Sequence record: SRR20825010_2901
Strand: one strand, 5' to 3'
DNA: 43,172 bases
Below the pieces are notes generated by a model, which saw only the letters and a list, made by a program, of their open reading frames with translations, did no database searches and was not told the DNA's origin. Below are positions 26,176-34,185 of this stretch, one piece after another. Position 1 is the stretch's first letter. Each line of letters starts with the position of its first letter. Both the position numbers and the translations under genes were made by a program.

Positions 26176-27708
26176 ATGAAACTCATAAAACCCTTATTCC
26201 TATTTATTCTGTGTTTGCCGTTACTTTCATTGGCACAATTGTCTCAGCCAAAAGAAAGTGCCATTTACTTCGATACCGATGTTCCCCGAATCGACATCAC
26301 TATTGCGCAAATCGATCTGGACTATCTATTGAATCCAGAAAATGAAGATAATGACGAAGAGTTTCCAGCTACCTTCAAATTTGCATCCGGCAGTTTTAAT
26401 GCAATAGAGGAAAATATCGGCTTTCGCCTACGCGGAAACACTTCAAGATCTGCTGAAAAAAAATCATTCAAAGTTTCGATAAACGAATATCAGAAGGGGC
26501 GCGATTTGGATGGTTTTGAGAAATTTAACCTGAACGGAGAACACAACGACCCATCTATCATCCGATCAAAATTATGTTGGGATTTAATGAATGAAATTGG
26601 AGTCCCTTCGTCCAGAGCCAATCTAGTGGAGCTTTACATCAATGGCGATTATTACGGTGTTTATGCCAACATAGAGCATGTGGACGAGGAGTTTGTCGAG
26701 GAACGATTTGGGAACAAAGACGGTAACCTATTTAAATGCCTCTACCCGGCCGATCTTAAATACAAGAGTTCCGACCCGAATGTTTACAAGGAAGAGTATT
26801 GGGGCCGAAGAGCCTACGAATTATCAACCAATGAAGAAATAGATGACTACACAGGTCTGGCCAATTTGATTCGTGTACTCAACCAAACTTCCAATAGTGT
26901 ATTTGAGTCCGAAATAGAAGAAGTATTTGATGTACTGAGTTACCTGAAAGCGCTGGCAGTTGAGGTTTTGGTTGCGCACTGGGACAATTACGGAATTAAT
27001 CAAAACAACTTCTACCTATACGAAAATCCAGCTGATGGAAAGTTCTATTACATCCCGTACGATCTGGACAACACGCTCGGTGTGGACTGGTTCAATGTCG
27101 ACTGGGCTGATTGGGACATTTATGAATGGTACAATGACAACCGACCATTGACCAGAAGAATCCTACAAGTCAGCAAATACAGGGAAGAATTTACCCGAAT
27201 CATGGATAGGCTACTTAAAGACCAGTTTCTCCCGGCAAACATCAACCCAAGAATCGATGAATTAAAAGCAATGATTCAGGATGCTGCCGAACGAGACCAG
27301 TATAGAACCTATGATTATGGCTTTACTATTGATGATTTCAATAAAAGTTATACTCAATCGCTGGATTATTTTCAGGTTCGGTATGGTTTAAAAGAATATA
27401 TCCAAAGGAGACACACCACAGCCCTTAGCCAGCTAGATGATGTAATACCTCTGGCAAACACGGCCATCACAGCCTCTTTTTCCATCTACCCAAATCCGTC
27501 AAAAGATGTCATCAATATCACTCTGCCCTTTGAATACACAAGTGCTGAAGTAGACCTGTTTACCCTTGACGGGAAAAAGATCCTTACAAAAACTTTTGAG
27601 CAACAGAATCTAAGAATTCAACACGACCTTCCCGAAGGGGTTTACCTGCTCCAAATCAGAGCAGCATCCAGCGCTCCTATTAACCGAAAAGTTTACATTT
27701 CTGACTAA
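26176..27708 (+). CDS. CotH kinase family protein with a T9SS type A sorting domain
   Basis: RLRGNTSR..KKSFK, INGDYYGVY..IE, WDNY...NNFYLY and IPYDLD; C-terminal IYPNP...GVYLLQI; signal peptide. Confidence 0.92.
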   Translation: MKLIKPLFLFILCLPLLSLAQLSQPKESAIYFDTDVPRIDITIAQIDLDYLLNPENEDNDEEFPATFKFASGSFNAIEENIGFRLRGNTSRSAEKKSFKVSINEYQKGRDLDGFEKFNLNGEHNDPSIIRSKLCWDLMNEIGVPSSRANLVELYINGDYYGVYANIEHVDEEFVEERFGNKDGNLFKCLYPADLKYKSSDPNVYKEEYWGRRAYELSTNEEIDDYTGLANLIRVLNQTSNSVFESEIEEVFDVLSYLKALAVEVLVAHWDNYGINQNNFYLYENPADGKFYYIPYDLDNTLGVDWFNVDWADWDIYEWYNDNRPLTRRILQVSKYREEFTRIMDRLLKDQFLPANINPRIDELKAMIQDAAERDQYRTYDYGFTIDDFNKSYTQSLDYFQVRYGLKEYIQRRHTTALSQLDDVIPLANTAITASFSIYPNPSKDVINITLPFEYTSAEVDLFTLDGKKILTKTFEQQNLRIQHDLPEGVYLLQIRAASSAPINRKVYISD

Positions 27709-28391: not shown

Positions 28392-29000
28392 TTATTTCTT
28401 ATCCTTCAAAACAGAAGTGATTTTATTGAGTTCCTTCACTTTATCTTCAAAATTTCCTTTGAGTTTGTCGCGGATCGATTTGAGGTTCGCCAGCAATTCG
28501 TCCGTTTCCTCGGGAATGGTTTCTTCCAGTATTTCTCTGAATCGCTTCGCAAAAGTGGGTGACTGACCATTTGTGCTGATACCTACCTTAAGGTTACCCC
28601 GCTTCACGGTAGAGCCCAAATAGAAATCACACAAATCAGGCGTATCCGCTACATTCACCAGAAGGTGGCGCTTGTCCGCCAGCTTCTTAATCTTCTTATG
28701 TAAATCAGGTTTGTCTGTCGCGAGAATAGCCAAATCAACGCGTTTCAGATCACTCTTTTCAAATTTCCGTTCCTTTAAAATCAGGTTTGGTGCGTCGACA
28801 AGAAGTTCCTTAATCTCCTTTCTGATTTCTGGTGCAACCAACTTCACTCTAGCGTTTATGTCGTTCTTCAGAAGTGCTTCCAATTTCTCCAGGCCAACAT
28901 TTCCTCCTCCCACAACCAGGGTTTGAATCTGATCCAGTTTCAAAAAAATAGGAAAAAGTGGATTTCCTTTATTCGATTCCTTTGACGACTGATCCAACAT
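28392..29000 (-). CDS. Precorrin-2 dehydrogenase / sirohydrochlorin ferrochelatase (CysG N-terminal/Met8/SirC family)
   Basis: LFPIFL, Rossmann VVGGGNVG, NVADTP..CDFY and ISTNGQSP. Confidence 0.92.
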   Translation of the reverse strand: MLDQSSKESNKGNPLFPIFLKLDQIQTLVVGGGNVGLEKLEALLKNDINARVKLVAPEIRKEIKELLVDAPNLILKERKFEKSDLKRVDLAILATDKPDLHKKIKKLADKRHLLVNVADTPDLCDFYLGSTVKRGNLKVGISTNGQSPTFAKRFREILEETIPEETDELLANLKSIRDKLKGNFEDKVKELNKITSVLKDKK

Positions 29001-29003
29001 ACG

Positions 29004-29741
29004 CTATTCTTTAAAAGATTGAATGGAATGTGCCTGAGCGGCACCTTCACCAAAGATAAGCAAGGTTGGCGCCTCCGGCTTTTTCTCGTCGAAGATATCA
29101 ACAATGGTATCAACCGTACCAGTAAACATCGTGCCGGATTCTAAAGACCCATTCGATATGACAGCCACGGGTAGTTTCCCGCGACCTGCTTTTTGATATT
29201 CGTTCACGATTAAATCGAGCTTCCTTGAGCCCATAAAGAAGACGGTAGAAGCCGAATATTTAGCAGCATTGGTTACTTCTTCGCTCAACTCTCCCTCAGC
29301 AGTAGTTGCCGTCACCGCTGTAAAACTCTGGTTGATTCCCCTGATGGTTAAGGGAATACCATAATACCCGGGCAACATGATGCTGCTAATCCCAATAACG
29401 ACAGATGATTTGATTCCGAATTTTTCTGCATAGCCGATTTCTTCCAACCCTCTGGCAAAAACAAATGGATCACCGCCTTTAAGACGCACCACGTGCTGGC
29501 CTTTCAAGGCGTGATGAACGATTAATTCGTTGATTTCCTTTTGAGAAACACTGTATTTGCCAGCTCGCTTGCCGACAAAAATCAATTCGGCATGAGCAGC
29601 GTGCTCCAGCATATCTGGATGCACGAGCGCATCGTAAAGAACCACATCGGCCACTTTTAGTGCTTTGACTCCCTTGAGGGTAATCAAATCTGGATCACCG
29701 GGACCCGCACCAACCAGCGTAAGTCTTGGCTCCCTTGCCAT
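29004..29741 (-). CDS. cobA: Uroporphyrinogen-III C-methyltransferase
   Basis: LVGAGPGDPDLITLKG, YDALV and VRLKGGDPFVFARG.EE. Confidence 0.95.
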   Translation of the reverse strand: MAREPRLTLVGAGPGDPDLITLKGVKALKVADVVLYDALVHPDMLEHAAHAELIFVGKRAGKYSVSQKEINELIVHHALKGQHVVRLKGGDPFVFARGLEEIGYAEKFGIKSSVVIGISSIMLPGYYGIPLTIRGINQSFTAVTATTAEGELSEEVTNAAKYSASTVFFMGSRKLDLIVNEYQKAGRGKLPVAVISNGSLESGTMFTGTVDTIVDIFDEKKPEAPTLLIFGEGAAQAHSIQSFKE

Positions 29742-29744
29742 CAA

Positions 29745-31868
29745 TTATGCTTTGTAAAAATTGCTTACCACCATTTTATCTTCGTTCTCTGCGTTTCGAA
29801 GGTCGATTATTTTAGTGCAAACTTCTTTTGCACTAGCAAAGTACGCCCTTGCAAAAGCTTCCGTAGGCTCATTTTTGTTGATTTCAAGCACAATTTCGCT
29901 GAATGGCCTGGCTAATTGAACAAGTCCTTCACCTTGCACTTTCTCTTCAAAATCCGAAATGATAGCTATGTGCGTATTGCACTGAATGTCTTTACCTAGA
30001 AGAGTCGCTTTCGCTCCGATCACCAGCGCATTGTAAGTGTAATAGATTGCATTTGCCCACAAACCAGCTTCCAGTGATTGCTGCGCAGAAGTGTAACGAT
30101 CCTGAGCATCACCGAGAATCGTTCCAACTAAATCCATCATCACACCTGCACATTCACCCACACCTATTTCAGGAATAAAATCGGCTTCCTTGCCCCAATC
30201 CTGAAAACCATCATCATCCAATGTGGTCAGATCTGCGAGCGGCTTAAGTAGATCGTAAAAATAAATTTTACCTTGTCTTCTCACATACTCGTTGAAGTAT
30301 TCCGTTTCCTCTGCTTTCTCTTCGTAGTTATTCAGCAACCAACGAACGGCTTCAGGAATTCTTTTTGAAGGTATTTTAATTACTTTATCCGCGATGTAGC
30401 CTTTCCCGTCAGGGTCAATACCGCCACCAAGAACAACCTGTTGTGCCGGGCAAACTTTGCTGCCATGCTTGATACTGCTGCCATGAAACCCAATATTGGC
30501 AATCATGTGCTGACCGCATGAGTTCATACAACCACTAATTTTTATTTTGATCAGAGACTCATCTACCAAATGGGGATATTCGTCTCTTATAAGCTTTTCC
30601 AACTCTAATGAAAGCGCCGTACTATTGGTTACACCCAGATTACAAGTGTCCGTTCCGGGACAAGCTGTCACATCCGCCAATGTATCAAAACCTGGATCCG
30701 ACAAATTCACTTTTCCTAGTTCTTCGTAAACCTTTTTGATGTTTTCCGGTAGGATATTTCTAAATAGCAAACCTTGATTTACTGTGATCCGAATATCGTC
30801 TGCGGCATATTTATCAACTATTGCGGCTAATTCATGAGCAATATCGGGTTTGATATCACCCAGAGGAATCCGCACTTTTACTGCATAAAGTCCTTTTTGC
30901 TTTTGCTCAAAAATGTTGGTTCCTACCCAGGTCAAAAACTCCGGATCTTTCTCACCTTCGAAGATCGAAGACAAATCACCGGAACCACCAACCGCTTCCG
31001 CGTGTTCAGCTGGATTGATTTCAAAGGATTGATACGGCAATGATTTTCTTTCTTCATCCACCAATTTCAGGAAACCATCAAGACCAAGTCCTTTTTTCGG
31101 TTCTACTAAAAACTTCAATCGTGCCTTGTGTCTTCTTTCTCTCTCTCCGTATCGGTCGAAAACCCGCAAAGAGGCCTCTACAAAAGGAATAAGCTGGTCG
31201 GTTGGTAAAAATTCATACGCCTGAGGCGCCATGAATGCCTGAGCACCAAGCCCACCACCCACAAGCACACGAAATCCTCGCTTACCGTCCTTAATTACTG
31301 GTGTGAAACCAAAATCGTGGATATAAGTGAGCGCATCATCTTTGTCGCTCGAAGAAAAAGCTATTTTGATTTTTCTACCCATATCCTGACAGATTGGGTT
31401 TCGAAGGAAATATTTAAACGTAGCATCGACATAAGGAACAACATCAAATGCCTCGTCTGGATCGATTCCTGCAAAAGGGGATGCTGTGATGTTTCTAACC
31501 GTGTTTCCGCAAGCCTCGCGTGAAGTCATGCCGGCAGCTTCTAAGGCTTCATAGACCATCGGACTATCCGCCAATTTCACATAATGAAGCTGAATATTCT
31601 GGCGAGTGGTCAAGTGAAGGTTGCTACTTCCGTAGTTTACCGAAAGGTCAGCCACTACACGAAGTTGATCAGCCGTGATTTTACCATAAGGCAGTTTCAA
31701 TCGGTACATGTGTACACCCAATTGACGCTGACCATAAACGCCTCTTGTCAAACGAAACGCTTTGAATCGGTCTTCATCCATTTGACCAGAATTGAACCGA
31801 TCAATTTTGGTTAACAACTCTTCAACGTCCGCTTGTGCTTCCTTATTCATTTCCTTCGTTACGCTCAT
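29745..31868 (-). CDS. Siroheme sulfite/nitrite reductase with a C-terminal HEPN-like domain
   Basis: GVYGQRQ, HLTTRQNIQ, GNTVRN; siroheme/4Fe-4S cysteines CPGTDTC and SGCMNSCGQH. Operon context favours sulfite as substrate. Confidence 0.92.
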   Translation of the reverse strand: MSVTKEMNKEAQADVEELLTKIDRFNSGQMDEDRFKAFRLTRGVYGQRQLGVHMYRLKLPYGKITADQLRVVADLSVNYGSSNLHLTTRQNIQLHYVKLADSPMVYEALEAAGMTSREACGNTVRNITASPFAGIDPDEAFDVVPYVDATFKYFLRNPICQDMGRKIKIAFSSSDKDDALTYIHDFGFTPVIKDGKRGFRVLVGGGLGAQAFMAPQAYEFLPTDQLIPFVEASLRVFDRYGERERRHKARLKFLVEPKKGLGLDGFLKLVDEERKSLPYQSFEINPAEHAEAVGGSGDLSSIFEGEKDPEFLTWVGTNIFEQKQKGLYAVKVRIPLGDIKPDIAHELAAIVDKYAADDIRITVNQGLLFRNILPENIKKVYEELGKVNLSDPGFDTLADVTACPGTDTCNLGVTNSTALSLELEKLIRDEYPHLVDESLIKIKISGCMNSCGQHMIANIGFHGSSIKHGSKVCPAQQVVLGGGIDPDGKGYIADKVIKIPSKRIPEAVRWLLNNYEEKAEETEYFNEYVRRQGKIYFYDLLKPLADLTTLDDDGFQDWGKEADFIPEIGVGECAGVMMDLVGTILGDAQDRYTSAQQSLEAGLWANAIYYTYNALVIGAKATLLGKDIQCNTHIAIISDFEEKVQGEGLVQLARPFSEIVLEINKNEPTEAFARAYFASAKEVCTKIIDLRNAENEDKMVVSNFYKA

Positions 31869-31911: not shown

Positions 31912-33087
31912 TTATTTTAAATTTTTACTAGCCTCCAGGGCCTGATCGATATCCGCGATGATATCATTGATGTTTTCTAATCCTACCGAAATACGAACCA
32001 AACCGGGAGCAATTCCCACTATTGTTCTTTCCTCTTCCGTCAACTTACTATGTGTGGTAGATGCCGGATGTGTCGCCGTACTACGTGTATCGCCCAGATT
32101 AGGCGTCAAACTCAGCATTTTCAAGCCATTCAAAAAGCCCGCTCCACGTTCCAGTCCTCCTTTGACTATAAAGGTCACTACGCCACCCCCTTGTCGCATT
32201 TGCTTCTTGGCTATTGCAAACTGAGGATGAGATTCTAGAAACGGATATTTCACTTGTTCTAGTTCCGCATGTGATTCCAAATAGCGTGCAATTTTCAATG
32301 CATTGTCGCAGTGGCGATCCATTCGCACAGCAAGGGTTTCCAAACTTTTGCTGAGTACCCATGCATTAAATGGTGACATACTTGGCCCTGTATGTCGCGC
32401 AAAAAATCGTATTTCTTCTATTAACTCTTTCTTTCCAAGGATGGCTCCTCCCAATGTTCTGCCCTGACCGTCGATGAATTTGGTAGCCGAATGGGTGACA
32501 ATATGCGCACCAAAATCCGCCGGATTTTGCAAATAAGGTGTGGCAAAACAATTGTCAACATTGAGAATGATATTGTGCTTTTTCGCCAATTTCCCTAGAT
32601 ACTCCAGATCTACCAAATCCAAACCCGGGTTCGATGGCGTTTCCACAAAAATCATCCTGGTATTCGTTTTGATTAATTTCTCACAATCCCCCGGTGAGGA
32701 CAAGTCGAAATACGAACTTTCGATCCCCCATTTCGGGAAAACTTTGGTGAAAAGCTGATGGGTAGACCCAAAAATGGCTCGTGATGAGATAATGTGGTCC
32801 CCGGATTTGAGCAATGCCGCGATACTCGTGAACATGGCCGACATCCCTGTAGCCACAGAAATACCGTCTTCTGTATTTTCCAATTGACACAGTTTGTTAA
32901 TAAACTCGTCGGTATTCGGATTGGAATATCTGGAATAAATGTTGCCGGGTATTTCGTCATTAAACATCGCCCGGGCTTCTTCCGCATCGGAAAATGTAAA
33001 ACTGCTGGTCAGGTAAAGCGGAACTGAATGCTCCCTTTGAGAGGCATTGCTTACCTGCGTTCGTATAGCTTTCGTTTCAAAATTCAT
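31912..33087 (-). CDS. metZ: O-succinylhomoserine sulfhydrylase-like PLP trans-sulfuration enzyme
   Basis: YSRYSNP, ETPSNP, VDNCF, HSATK (PLP lysine), NLGD.RS...HPASTTH and RISVGLE. Confidence 0.85.
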   Translation of the reverse strand: MNFETKAIRTQVSNASQREHSVPLYLTSSFTFSDAEEARAMFNDEIPGNIYSRYSNPNTDEFINKLCQLENTEDGISVATGMSAMFTSIAALLKSGDHIISSRAIFGSTHQLFTKVFPKWGIESSYFDLSSPGDCEKLIKTNTRMIFVETPSNPGLDLVDLEYLGKLAKKHNIILNVDNCFATPYLQNPADFGAHIVTHSATKFIDGQGRTLGGAILGKKELIEEIRFFARHTGPSMSPFNAWVLSKSLETLAVRMDRHCDNALKIARYLESHAELEQVKYPFLESHPQFAIAKKQMRQGGGVVTFIVKGGLERGAGFLNGLKMLSLTPNLGDTRSTATHPASTTHSKLTEEERTIVGIAPGLVRISVGLENINDIIADIDQALEASKNLK

Positions 33088-33128
33088 TTATGAATACTCG
33101 ATTATTAGTTTGTGTTTCGATCAGAAAA

Positions 33129-33215
33129 TCAAAAACAAACGGAACAACAACAATTCCCTGAATTGGAAAGAAAGGTATTAATCGTGCTTACGCCTGAAGT
33201 AAAAATTGTTTTCAT
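33129..33215 (-). CDS. Putative Cys-rich leader peptide (28 aa, MKTIFTSGVSTINTFLSNSGNCCCSVCF)
   Basis: ATG 33215 to TGA 33129, with four TGT codons among the last seven sense codons. Lies between the SAM riboswitch and metZ. Confidence 0.7.
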   Translation of the reverse strand: MKTIFTSGVSTINTFLSNSGNCCCSVCF

Positions 33216-33221
33216 ATCTCA

Positions 33222-33332
33222 ATTCATATTCTCTGCAAAATCACAGATCAGGATTTAGCACCGCAATCAGCTGGGTAGCTGACAGGTTGCTAGCGTTTCG
33301 TCGAGCCTGTCTCTCCGCGCTTCTTTATAAAT
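33222..33332 (-). ncRNA. SAM-I family riboswitch
   Basis: Minus strand TTATAAAGAAGCGCGGAGAGACAGGCTCGACGAAACGCTAGCAACC...GGTGCTAAATCCTG...ATATGAA matches the S-box pattern. It lies upstream of Met/Cys genes. Confidence 0.9.
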
Positions 33333-33357
33333 CAATCAATCTTTATTGAATGAGGGG

Positions 33358-33388
33358 CAAAGGTGGGCGATAAGATTGAAACATCAAA
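33358..33388 (-). promoter_or_regulatory. Candidate Bacteroidota housekeeping promoter for the riboswitch/sulfur operon
   Basis: TTTG-N19-CACCTTTG, one mismatch to the TAnnTTTG -7 element, about 25 nt before the riboswitch. Confidence 0.4.
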
Positions 33389-33564
33389 AGAATCTTTAAT
33401 AAGAATCCAAAAATTCAGTTTGAGAATTTCGAATGTTACCAAAAAATAAAGAAAATATTTTGTCGTGAATTGTTCATTTATCGGTTGAGGTGTTACAATT
33501 AGCCAAAGTTTTTATATGACAAAAACTTATGTTTTATTTGGGCACATTATCCACTCATACCGCT

Positions 33565-34185
33565 ATGAAAAAATTCCTTTTTGTTCTTGCCGTTTTGCTC
33601 CTATCAGGATGTGCCAAAAGGTATTATGAAATTTCGCCCTCCTCTTTCAATTATGAAAACAGAATAAGCGCCACCGGACCGATCAGGATCACTTATGTGT
33701 ATGATGCACAATACGAAGAGCACAACAAGGTCTATTCCAAATTTGAAAGAAATGCCAACTTAAAACTGATTGGCCTCAAAATAGAAAACACGAGCGACGA
33801 ACCTGTTCAATTAAGACAGGACAACTTCTTTGTTCTGTCTGCGAGCGGAAGAATGATCACGGTGGTAGATGCCTCGTTCTATTCATCTAAGGTTCGTCAA
33901 AAACCGGAATTTTACGTGCTATACTACGGGCTGGCTGGAATTGGTGTTTACGGACAGCAAGATTCCAATGGAAAAACAGATGTACGATTAACCTATAACC
34001 CTATTCCTCTTGCAATAGGAATTGGTAATGCCATATACGCCGGAATAGCAAACAATAAAATGAAACAGAATCTCAAACGAGAATATGTATTAGGCAAAAC
34101 AATCGCTCCAAGAGGTCAAATAAATGGACTACTTGCGATTAGCGAAAGAGGATATCCTGAACTTATATTTGAATATGCTGAATAA
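33565..34185 (+). CDS. Hypothetical lipoprotein
   Basis: MKKFLFVLAVLLLSG-C lipobox from ATG 33565, plus an internal Gly-rich hydrophobic hairpin. Confidence 0.8.
   Translation: MKKFLFVLAVLLLSGCAKRYYEISPSSFNYENRISATGPIRITYVYDAQYEEHNKVYSKFERNANLKLIGLKIENTSDEPVQLRQDNFFVLSASGRMITVVDASFYSSKVRQKPEFYVLYYGLAGIGVYGQQDSNGKTDVRLTYNPIPLAIGIGNAIYAGIANNKMKQNLKREYVLGKTIAPRGQINGLLAISERGYPELIFEYAE

Follow-up and report, generated by a model that had tools for sequence, protein, structure and literature searches.

We describe a 5′ leader in which an aptamer for S-adenosylmethionine (SAM) of the SAM-I (S-box) class is followed directly by a short open reading frame (ORF) that ends in a group of cysteine codons. 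The leader precedes a metZ-like gene on the minus strand of a DNA stretch of 43,172 nucleotides from sequence record SRR20825010_2901, which as a whole is called the window below, and counterparts were found before sulfur-related genes in related genomes. We consider it likely that the arrangement represents a composite leader with two sensors on one RNA, the SAM-I aptamer and the leader ORF ending in Cys codons, which would act in the three steps set out below. Expression of the sulfur genes behind it is probably responsive to the supply of cysteine as well as of methionine/SAM.

The aptamer of the window is full-length. Rfam family RF00162 was matched at E 1.3e-13 and 67.0 bits, above the gathering score of 44.4, and the alignment spans model positions 1-108, which cover the four-way junction of P1-P4 without truncation (coordinates in Table 1). 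A function as SAM-binding repressor of the downstream genes is predicted, and the methionine and sulfur gene context fits this prediction. The leader ORF ends with TGT TGT TGT TCC GTT TGT TTT TGA (CCCSVCF-stop) and has four Cys codons among its last seven codons. An earlier note on this DNA, made from the sequence alone, had listed the aptamer, the 28-codon ORF, its Cys-codon end and the gap to the metZ-like start as parts of a possible two-input control of sulfur assimilation, and all of them are present on the minus strand. The lack of a strong terminator hairpin, also claimed there, was confirmed by a consensus scan that found no terminator-like site in 32800..33700, with 0.8 expected from shuffled sequences. 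Folding of the window leader was no better than that of shuffles (z -1.57 and -0.24).

Conservation of the Cys-Tailed Leader ORF

To look for this arrangement in other organisms, 80 loci with genes for proteins related to the MetZ-like enzyme were taken, and the first 20 of them were scanned with Rfam. The nearest relative (79% identity) stems from a record titled as a Cyclobacteriaceae metagenome-assembled genome (MAG). A SAM-I aptamer near the metZ relative was present in 3 of the 20 scanned loci, and all three had a short ORF starting right past P1, with the ends ...SCCCC, ...RCCCCCC, and ...YCCCCCCQ. Runs of TGY codons are present also at loci L065 and L077. The whole genomes of the three contained eight SAM-I aptamers, two of which were located before metH without such an ORF, and the other six were followed by it (three of them before MetY-type genes).

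The search was then widened to 151 genomes of the nearest relative's order, presumably Cytophagales. SAM-I was present in 121 of these genomes with 260 matches, and the survey set was composed of the best-scoring 150 of the 260 matches and six further leaders, giving 156 leaders from 96 genomes. A leader ORF was regarded as Cys-tailed if it had at least three Cys among its last eight codons, a length of 15-62 codons, and an ATG, GTG, or TTG start located between -8 and +40 of the aptamer end. Such an ORF was found in 55 of the 156 leaders and in 43 of the 96 genomes, and six more leaders end in two Cys. As a control, other small ORFs of the same length range were taken from the same loci on both strands, and only 14 of 3539 had a Cys tail. 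As only the top candidate among a few ORFs was counted for each leader, the leader count is inflated few-fold at most, and chance could account for a few leaders, not for 55. The pairing of the aptamer with a Cys leader ORF is not a matter of chance.

The reading frame of the Cys codons was conserved as well. Among 57 runs of at least three TGY codons, 55 belong to the frame of an ORF that starts with ATG or GTG, the frame being free of stops as far back as the aptamer end; the two exceptions are an aptamer-boundary artefact (L086) and a second run within its leader (L136). A UG-rich motif conserved irrespective of frame, which the earlier note had named as a possible refutation, is not supported, because such a motif would not yield 55 in-frame runs out of 57. 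TGT and TGC are freely exchanged, with 27 distinct codon strings among the runs, which is the synonymous variation that the note had proposed as a test for Cys-codon ORFs past SAM-I across Bacteroidota. Interruptions of the runs consist of whole codons (M, T, S, A, P, I, R) and never shift the frame.

The start of the leader ORF next to the 3′ strand of P1, noted before for the window, corresponds to a near-fixed offset in the 55 leaders: the ORF begins at +9 (25 leaders), +10 (11), +7 (6), +8 (4), or +11 (3) past the aptamer end, i.e., between +7 and +11 in 49 cases. The last Cys codon is located directly before the stop codon in 37 and one codon before it in 13 of the 55 ORFs. The longest Cys run per ORF varies from 2 to 8 codons, the ORF length from 23 to 55 codons (median 35), and the distance between the ORF stop and the main start codon from 41 to 389 nt (median 130). 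Conservation is confined to the tail, since grouping of the bodies of the peptides at ≥50% identity gave 47 clusters.

In high-GC genomes, the leader ORFs have a GTG start, mostly at +9, and the same Cys end. The runs in these genomes favor TGT over TGC (68:37), although the main genes favor TGC (26:8), making TGT the rarer codon. Several of the high-GC leader ORFs at L176, L178, L180, L184, L200, L217, L225, L232, and L235 share a conserved 5′ end that starts with VDAANN or VDCFPN. Methionine is enriched beside the Cys runs: of the non-Cys residues, it accounts for 31/271 within the final 10 codons and for 15/1342 in the bodies, and Met-tRNA may be a third input. Met codons flanking or interrupting the runs (MCCCCM, CMCCCC, MMACCMCCCCMC) are seen, e.g., at L101, L107, L083, and L255.

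Downstream Genes and Distribution

The genes downstream of the 156 leaders were classified by Pfam scans and N-terminal motifs. A Cys tail was found before 31 of 45 genes for MetY-type sulfhydrylases, 4 of 7 for MetZ-type enzymes, 3 of 7 for 3′-phosphoadenosine 5′-phosphosulfate (PAPS) reductases (plus two weak tails and two ORFs with Cys runs farther from the stop), 5 of 6 for amino-acid permeases, and the single one for a sulfite reductase. It was present in 1 of 13 MetX leaders and in none of the leaders of MetH (0/45), MetB/C-type enzymes (0/5), homoserine dehydrogenase (0/3), and MetK (0/1). For the sulfur-incorporation classes compared to MetH, the Cys tail was counted in 39/60 vs. 0/45 leaders (Fisher p 1e-13, an optimistic value because the genomes are related). 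At the level of architecture and conservation, the survey supports the two-input sulfur control proposed in the earlier note.

If the tail is disregarded, a leader ORF starting at +3 to +14 was present in 43/45 MetY, 7/7 PAPS reductase, and 6/6 permease leaders and in 1/45 MetH leaders. The MetY loci L105, L108, L114, L129, L146, L147, L163, L177, L211, L212, L219, and L224 have a leader ORF at +7 to +10 without a Cys run; several of these ORFs end in scattered C and M residues, e.g., RRMCIR or RMCSLCMRFRA. They may be degenerate or alternative versions.

The aptamers themselves also differ between the groups, as the 3′ strand of P1 is of an AU-rich 'TATAA' type in 51/55 Cys-tail leaders and of a GATAA/GATGA type in 39/45 MetH leaders. 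The MetH leaders (e.g., L085) have another platform, without a leader ORF and with the main start 40-110 nt past the aptamer; at L085 a hairpin visibly covers the start region. In a group of further loci (L111, L201, L122, L261/L262, L093/L094), SAM-I with a Cys leader ORF was seen before a gene of the fatty-acid hydroxylase family, a TonB-receptor-like gene, a gene of the Na+/H+ antiporter family, and an unclassified gene, and SAM-I without a leader ORF before a GH19 chitinase gene.

Outside the order, leader ORFs with a Cys/Met tail were found in Phaeodactylibacter xiamenensis (Saprospirales; end ...RCCMCCC) and in a Sphingobacteriaceae MAG (end ...MMACCMCCCCMC). Among the named genomes inspected, they were present also in Chryseolinea, Ohtaekwangia, and two Cyclobacteriaceae MAGs; no Cys-tailed leader ORF was found in those of Flavobacterium, Polaribacter, Tenacibaculum, Kaistella, Chitinophaga, two Chitinophagales MAGs, Sediminibacterium, Sphingobacterium sp., a Balneolales MAG, and Dyadobacter.

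Initiation Region, Structure and Composition of the Leaders

In the relatives, the 3′ strand of P1 is located at about -18 to -11 of the leader start codon, and in the window it is nearer still. The region from -18 to -4 is A/U-rich, with G accounting for 0-11% at most positions, and the second codon is A-rich. The main genes have a similar A-rich and G-poor start context. Over their first 39 nt, the leader ORFs are less structured than shuffled sequences (mean z +0.39, p 0.0016).

The ORF bodies are rich in C and poor in G. The C/G ratio is 1.92 in low-GC loci (C>G in 36/37) and 1.58 in high-GC loci, compared to about 1.0 in the main genes. A patch with C>G also occupies the first 20-40 nt past the stop codon of the leader ORF (paired test, p 0.005).

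A conserved intrinsic terminator past the ORF was not found in the relatives, the matches consisting mostly of a hairpin and the Cys run itself. A 'terminator-like' score was obtained for 21 of the 55 leaders, about 10 of which have a hairpin with the (TGT)n run as its T tract. A hairpin just before the Cys run is a weak trend in the whole set (mean z -0.43, p 0.026), with z below -1 in 16/55 leaders. In the metY leaders L136 and L152, a GC hairpin and a T run behind it form part of the leader ORF, about 70-90 nt past the aptamer and 5′ of the Cys run. Melting of this intrinsic-terminator-like hairpin by the translating ribosome could be a Rho-independent version of the logic proposed below.

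Proposed Mechanism

In the first step of the model, binding of SAM would close P1 and occlude the A/U-rich landing site, leaving the leader ORF untranslated, and in the absence of SAM the ORF would be translated. The anatomy of this region was observed, and we infer the function from it. Messenger RNAs of Bacteroidetes are described as devoid of Shine-Dalgarno (SD) sequences, with mRNA structure tuning initiation (PMC6847099, available in part). As initiation without an SD sequence depends on an unstructured A/U-rich region, closure of P1 would remove the landing site of the ribosome.

In the second step, scarcity of charged Cys-tRNA, and perhaps of Met-tRNA, would cause ribosomes to stall at the terminal Cys codons and to remain on the leader. 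This step is suggested by the in-frame conservation of Cys codons where the ORF ends, by the preference for the wobble-read TGT, and by the mycobacterial precedent discussed below.

The third step is the weakest one. Ribosomes on the C-rich, G-poor leader would allow transcription or expression to proceed into the metZ-like, sulfite reductase, and siroheme genes, whereas a bare leader (SAM bound) or one that is rapidly vacated (cysteine plentiful) would lead to shut-off. Occupancy of the leader must favor expression, because SAM must repress these genes. The downstream route is probably relief of Rho-dependent termination, the likeliest one because no intrinsic terminator is present. The C-rich body and the C>G patch behind the stop codon fit a shielding of a Rho loading site by ribosomes, as in tnaC and other Rho attenuators that depend on an upstream ORF (PMC12360218), but do not prove it. 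The earlier note had mentioned Rho or translational coupling as routes; for the former there are compositional hints, and a duplex that unmasks the ribosome-binding site (RBS) found no support. As a net result, the sulfur-assimilation genes would be expressed most strongly when SAM is low and cysteine is short.

Alternative Explanations and Weight of the Model

It is unlikely that the leaders work by the translational attenuation shown for polycysteine short ORFs of Mycobacterium smegmatis (10.1101/834739, available in part), in which the region of the Cys run hides the downstream initiation region and a stalled ribosome melts the duplex and thereby switches translation on. Good pairing exists at single loci, e.g., between the Cys run of L081 and ACAAUACAACAA right before the next start, and at L134 and L122 (z -2.5 and -2.6), but this is not general. 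Compared to shuffles, the Cys run had no excess of pairing with the leader part behind it (mean z -0.23, median 0.06; n = 55), and for the footprint of a stalled ribosome and the main start region the mean z was 0.05 (p 0.75; n = 55); both kinds of pairing were rejected as general features, though pairing within more complex folds may occur. In addition, the distance from the ORF stop to the main start is long and variable, as given above, and the main start regions are no more paired than those of MetH leaders (0.43 vs. 0.50). Even less probable is a leader ORF that transmits the SAM signal only and uses its Cys codons as a constant slow-decoding brake, by which the ribosome would keep pace with RNA polymerase or wait near the stop without reporting cysteine. 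The presence of the ORF in 43 of 45 MetY leaders, only 31 of which have a strong Cys tail, would agree with such a brake, and so would the preferred TGT and the hairpin preceding the run in a subset. It leaves unexplained, however, why the slow codons are always Cys codons with Met enriched beside them and why they are restricted to sulfur-related genes.

The TGT run might also be a non-coding U/G-rich RNA element, such as the U tract of a weak terminator or pause site, with the ORF being incidental. Such an element could account for the 'terminator-like' leaders, including those with (TGT)n as T tract, and for the retention of TGT even in high-GC genomes. It is already disfavored and in our view highly improbable: nearly all runs share the frame of an ORF whose start has a fixed offset from the aptamer, the stop codon follows the run within 0-1 codons in 50/55 leaders, interruptions comprise whole codons, TGC replaces TGT at varying positions, and the window itself has no terminator-like site. 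We give the least credence to a functional Cys-rich micropeptide, a metal or sulfur binder or a precursor, that is co-expressed with the sulfur genes. The conserved poly-Cys C-terminus is what speaks for it; on the other hand, the bodies are unrelated, the length of the ORFs varies more than two-fold, and their position is fixed to the riboswitch and not to a partner gene, the downstream genes being diverse.

Several observations weigh against the two-sensor model. The surveyed genomes are phylogenetically related, so that the p-values overstate the independence of the leaders. The Cys run is not obligatory, as a strong Cys tail is missing from 12 of the 43 leader ORFs before MetY genes. The C>G skew may reflect merely selection against structure, and SAM-I leaders without the ORF display a weaker skew (C/G 1.15-1.28). 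The roughly 10 leaders with a hairpin directly before (TGT)n resemble a weak terminator or pause site, and the run may act also at the RNA level. Finally, a strict AND logic requiring both low SAM and low cysteine would be odd for PAPS and sulfite reductases if cysteine is made directly from sulfide.

A more general reading goes beyond the individual leader and appears possible rather than probable to us. It holds that a whole subclass of SAM-I riboswitches in SD-less Bacteroidota acts in a way so far not described for riboswitches, in that P1 gates initiation at a leader ORF and ribosome occupancy is the real output, integrating SAM, Cys-tRNA, and possibly Met-tRNA. In Cytophagales and in some Saprospirales and Sphingobacteriales, sulfur assimilation would be controlled mainly by this subclass.

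The Locus in the Window and Its Close Relatives

The features of the leader and the genes downstream of it are summarized in Table 1. The metZ-like, sulfite reductase, and two siroheme synthesis genes on one strand probably constitute a sulfur-assimilation operon.

Table 1. Features of the SAM-I leader and the downstream genes in the window (all coordinates refer to the whole stretch).
Feature	Position	Strand	Remarks
SAM-I (S-box) aptamer	33221..33333	-	P1 5′ strand 33333..33326; P1 3′ strand 33228..33221; 113 nt
Spacer GAGAT between P1 3′ strand and ATG of the leader ORF	33216..33220	-	5 nt; together with P1 the G-poor, A/U-rich region 5′ of the start codon
Leader ORF, ATG start, 28 codons and TGA	33129..33215	-	MKTIFTSGVSTINTFLSNSGNCCCSVCF; ATG 5 nt past the last aptamer base
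Cys-codon tail, putative Cys-tRNA sensing site	33135..33152	-	TGT TGT TGT (33152..33144), TCC, GTT, TGT (33137..33135)
Spacer between leader-ORF stop and metZ-like start	33088..33128	-	41 nt
MetZ-like sulfhydrylase, first gene after the leader	31912..33087	-	391 aa; Cys/Met-metabolism pyridoxal phosphate enzyme, PF01053, E 3.5e-129
NirA-family sulfite/nitrite reductase	29745..31868	-	707 aa; PF01077 and PF03460; 43 nt 3′ of the metZ-like gene
Tetrapyrrole methylase (siroheme synthesis)	29004..29744	-	PF00590
Siroheme synthase N-terminal-type protein	28392..29000	-	PF13241 and PF14824

For the protein encoded by the first gene, the top NCBIfam models were those of O-succinylhomoserine sulfhydrylase with 499 bits, compared to a cut-off of 522. 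'MetZ-like' is a fair name, although the score lies below the curated threshold and the protein is not a certified equivalog. The NirA-family reductase probably shares an operon with the metZ-like gene; the NCBIfam NirA-family and sulfite reductase models scored under their own cut-offs. With 707 aa this protein is long, and its C-terminal extension has a sub-threshold match to HEPN (E 7.8e-4, 20 bits vs. a cut-off of 22). Elsewhere in the window, at 26176-27708 on the plus strand, a CotH-kinase-family protein with a C-terminal sorting domain for Por secretion (type IX secretion system) is encoded, which fits an origin from Bacteroidota.

Contigs of four DNA runs were aligned to 33000..33400 and gave three distinct sequences with 95-99% similarity, so that the numbers of differences are small; no RNA run was listed as containing the stretch. 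The 41-nt spacer was the most variable stretch (six variable sites and one insertion), and the ORF and the aptamer were much better kept. In the leader ORF (87 nt), two sites in one codon (I4 to L) and an in-frame 3-nt deletion in the Cys region were found; the latter could alternatively result from repeat slippage. The aptamer (113 nt) had three variable sites. A weak A-U/G-U hairpin at 33140..33108, predicted across the end of the leader ORF in both the minimum free energy and the centroid folds, was rejected as a conserved element, the substitutions in close relatives not being clearly compensatory.

Significance

In Bacteroidota, many riboswitches have no terminator and no SD sequence that could be masked, and a leader ORF gated by P1 would give a general answer to how they act. 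If the model holds true, the leaders would be natural devices with two, perhaps three inputs, joining methionine/SAM and cysteine status at the points of contact between the two pathways, i.e., sulfide incorporation, PAPS and sulfite reduction, and transporters. The range of polycysteine attenuation would then include a distant phylum and a composite type of leader. Leader ORFs of 23-55 codons escape standard annotation, and reporters could test the system directly.

Comparison with Known Systems

Short ORFs with polycysteine stretches act as cysteine-responsive attenuators in mycobacteria, where they form a 'Cys ribulon' (Canestrari et al., 2020, 10.1101/834739); they had been predicted earlier (Seliverstov et al., 2005, PMC1262725), both according to the available parts of these papers. 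Like the leader ORFs described here, they have a Cys run near the stop codon, lie upstream of cysteine and sulfur operons without an obvious intrinsic terminator, and occur at many loci per genome. Unlike these, the mycobacterial ORFs are leaderless, have no aptamer, and sense one input, whereas here a 113-nt aptamer precedes the ATG. The mycobacterial mechanism, unmasking of the downstream RBS, has no general support in our leaders, which belong to a distinct phylum without use of SD sequences.

Rho-dependent attenuation that relies on a short upstream ORF is known for tnaC, mgtL, and corL; this and the following comparisons with these systems refer to the available part of PMC12360218. The closest parallels in architecture described there are Salmonella mgtA, with a Mg2+-sensing leader, the proline-codon ORF mgtL, and Rho, and corA/corL, which likewise combine a ligand-responsive RNA with a codon-sensing short ORF. 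At mgtA, transcription is terminated prematurely without a classical terminator, as proposed here. The ligand (Mg2+), the sensed amino acid (Pro), the fold, and the lineage are different, and translation of mgtL promotes termination, whereas translation of the leader ORF must favor expression in our model. At E. coli tnaC-tnaAB, a ribosome held at the end of the ORF would shield a C-rich region from Rho, and our leaders have the sensing codons at the stop with a C>G patch behind it. However, tnaC senses free tryptophan via the nascent peptide and not tRNA charging, it has no riboswitch, and the role of Rho in our leaders is putative.

A second input reporting the supply of sulfur amino acids has been described for the dual-function expression platform of a SAM-I riboswitch of Xanthomonas campestris, where met genes are controlled at translation (Tang et al., 2020, PMC7270179, available in part). 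There, uncharged initiator tRNA is bound by the RNA and an anti-SD helix is involved, whereas we propose stalling at Cys codons in a phylum without SD sequences. Tandem SAM-I and adenosylcobalamin riboswitches on metE (reviewed in PMC9481103) are similar in having two serial sensors with two-input logic on a methionine gene; the second sensor is an aptamer in that case and a translated ORF in ours.

No account of a Cys leader ORF behind a SAM riboswitch was found in the full-text literature searched, which excludes most subscription journals and supplements, so that a prior mention is possible. The tandem-riboswitch review (PMC9481103) has no mention of a leader peptide, cysteine, or Bacteroidetes. 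The survey of Barrick and Breaker (PMC2258182) mentions neither a leader peptide nor Rho and refers to Bacteroidetes once in passing, and Naville and Gautheret (PMC2965389) mention neither Bacteroidetes nor the S-box.

With the classical attenuators of the trp, his, and leu operons, the leader of the window shares a short ORF in which codons for the regulating amino acid are clustered, but a terminator/antiterminator pair with a U tract is absent, which sets it apart from them. Nor does it belong to the mycobacterial class, because it is not leaderless and the unmasking duplex has no general support. The parts of the system are known from other organisms, i.e., SAM-I aptamers, polycysteine attenuators, a sensing RNA combined with a codon-sensing ORF as in mgtA/mgtL, and, according to the available part of PMC7270179, SAM-I with a tRNA-based second input.

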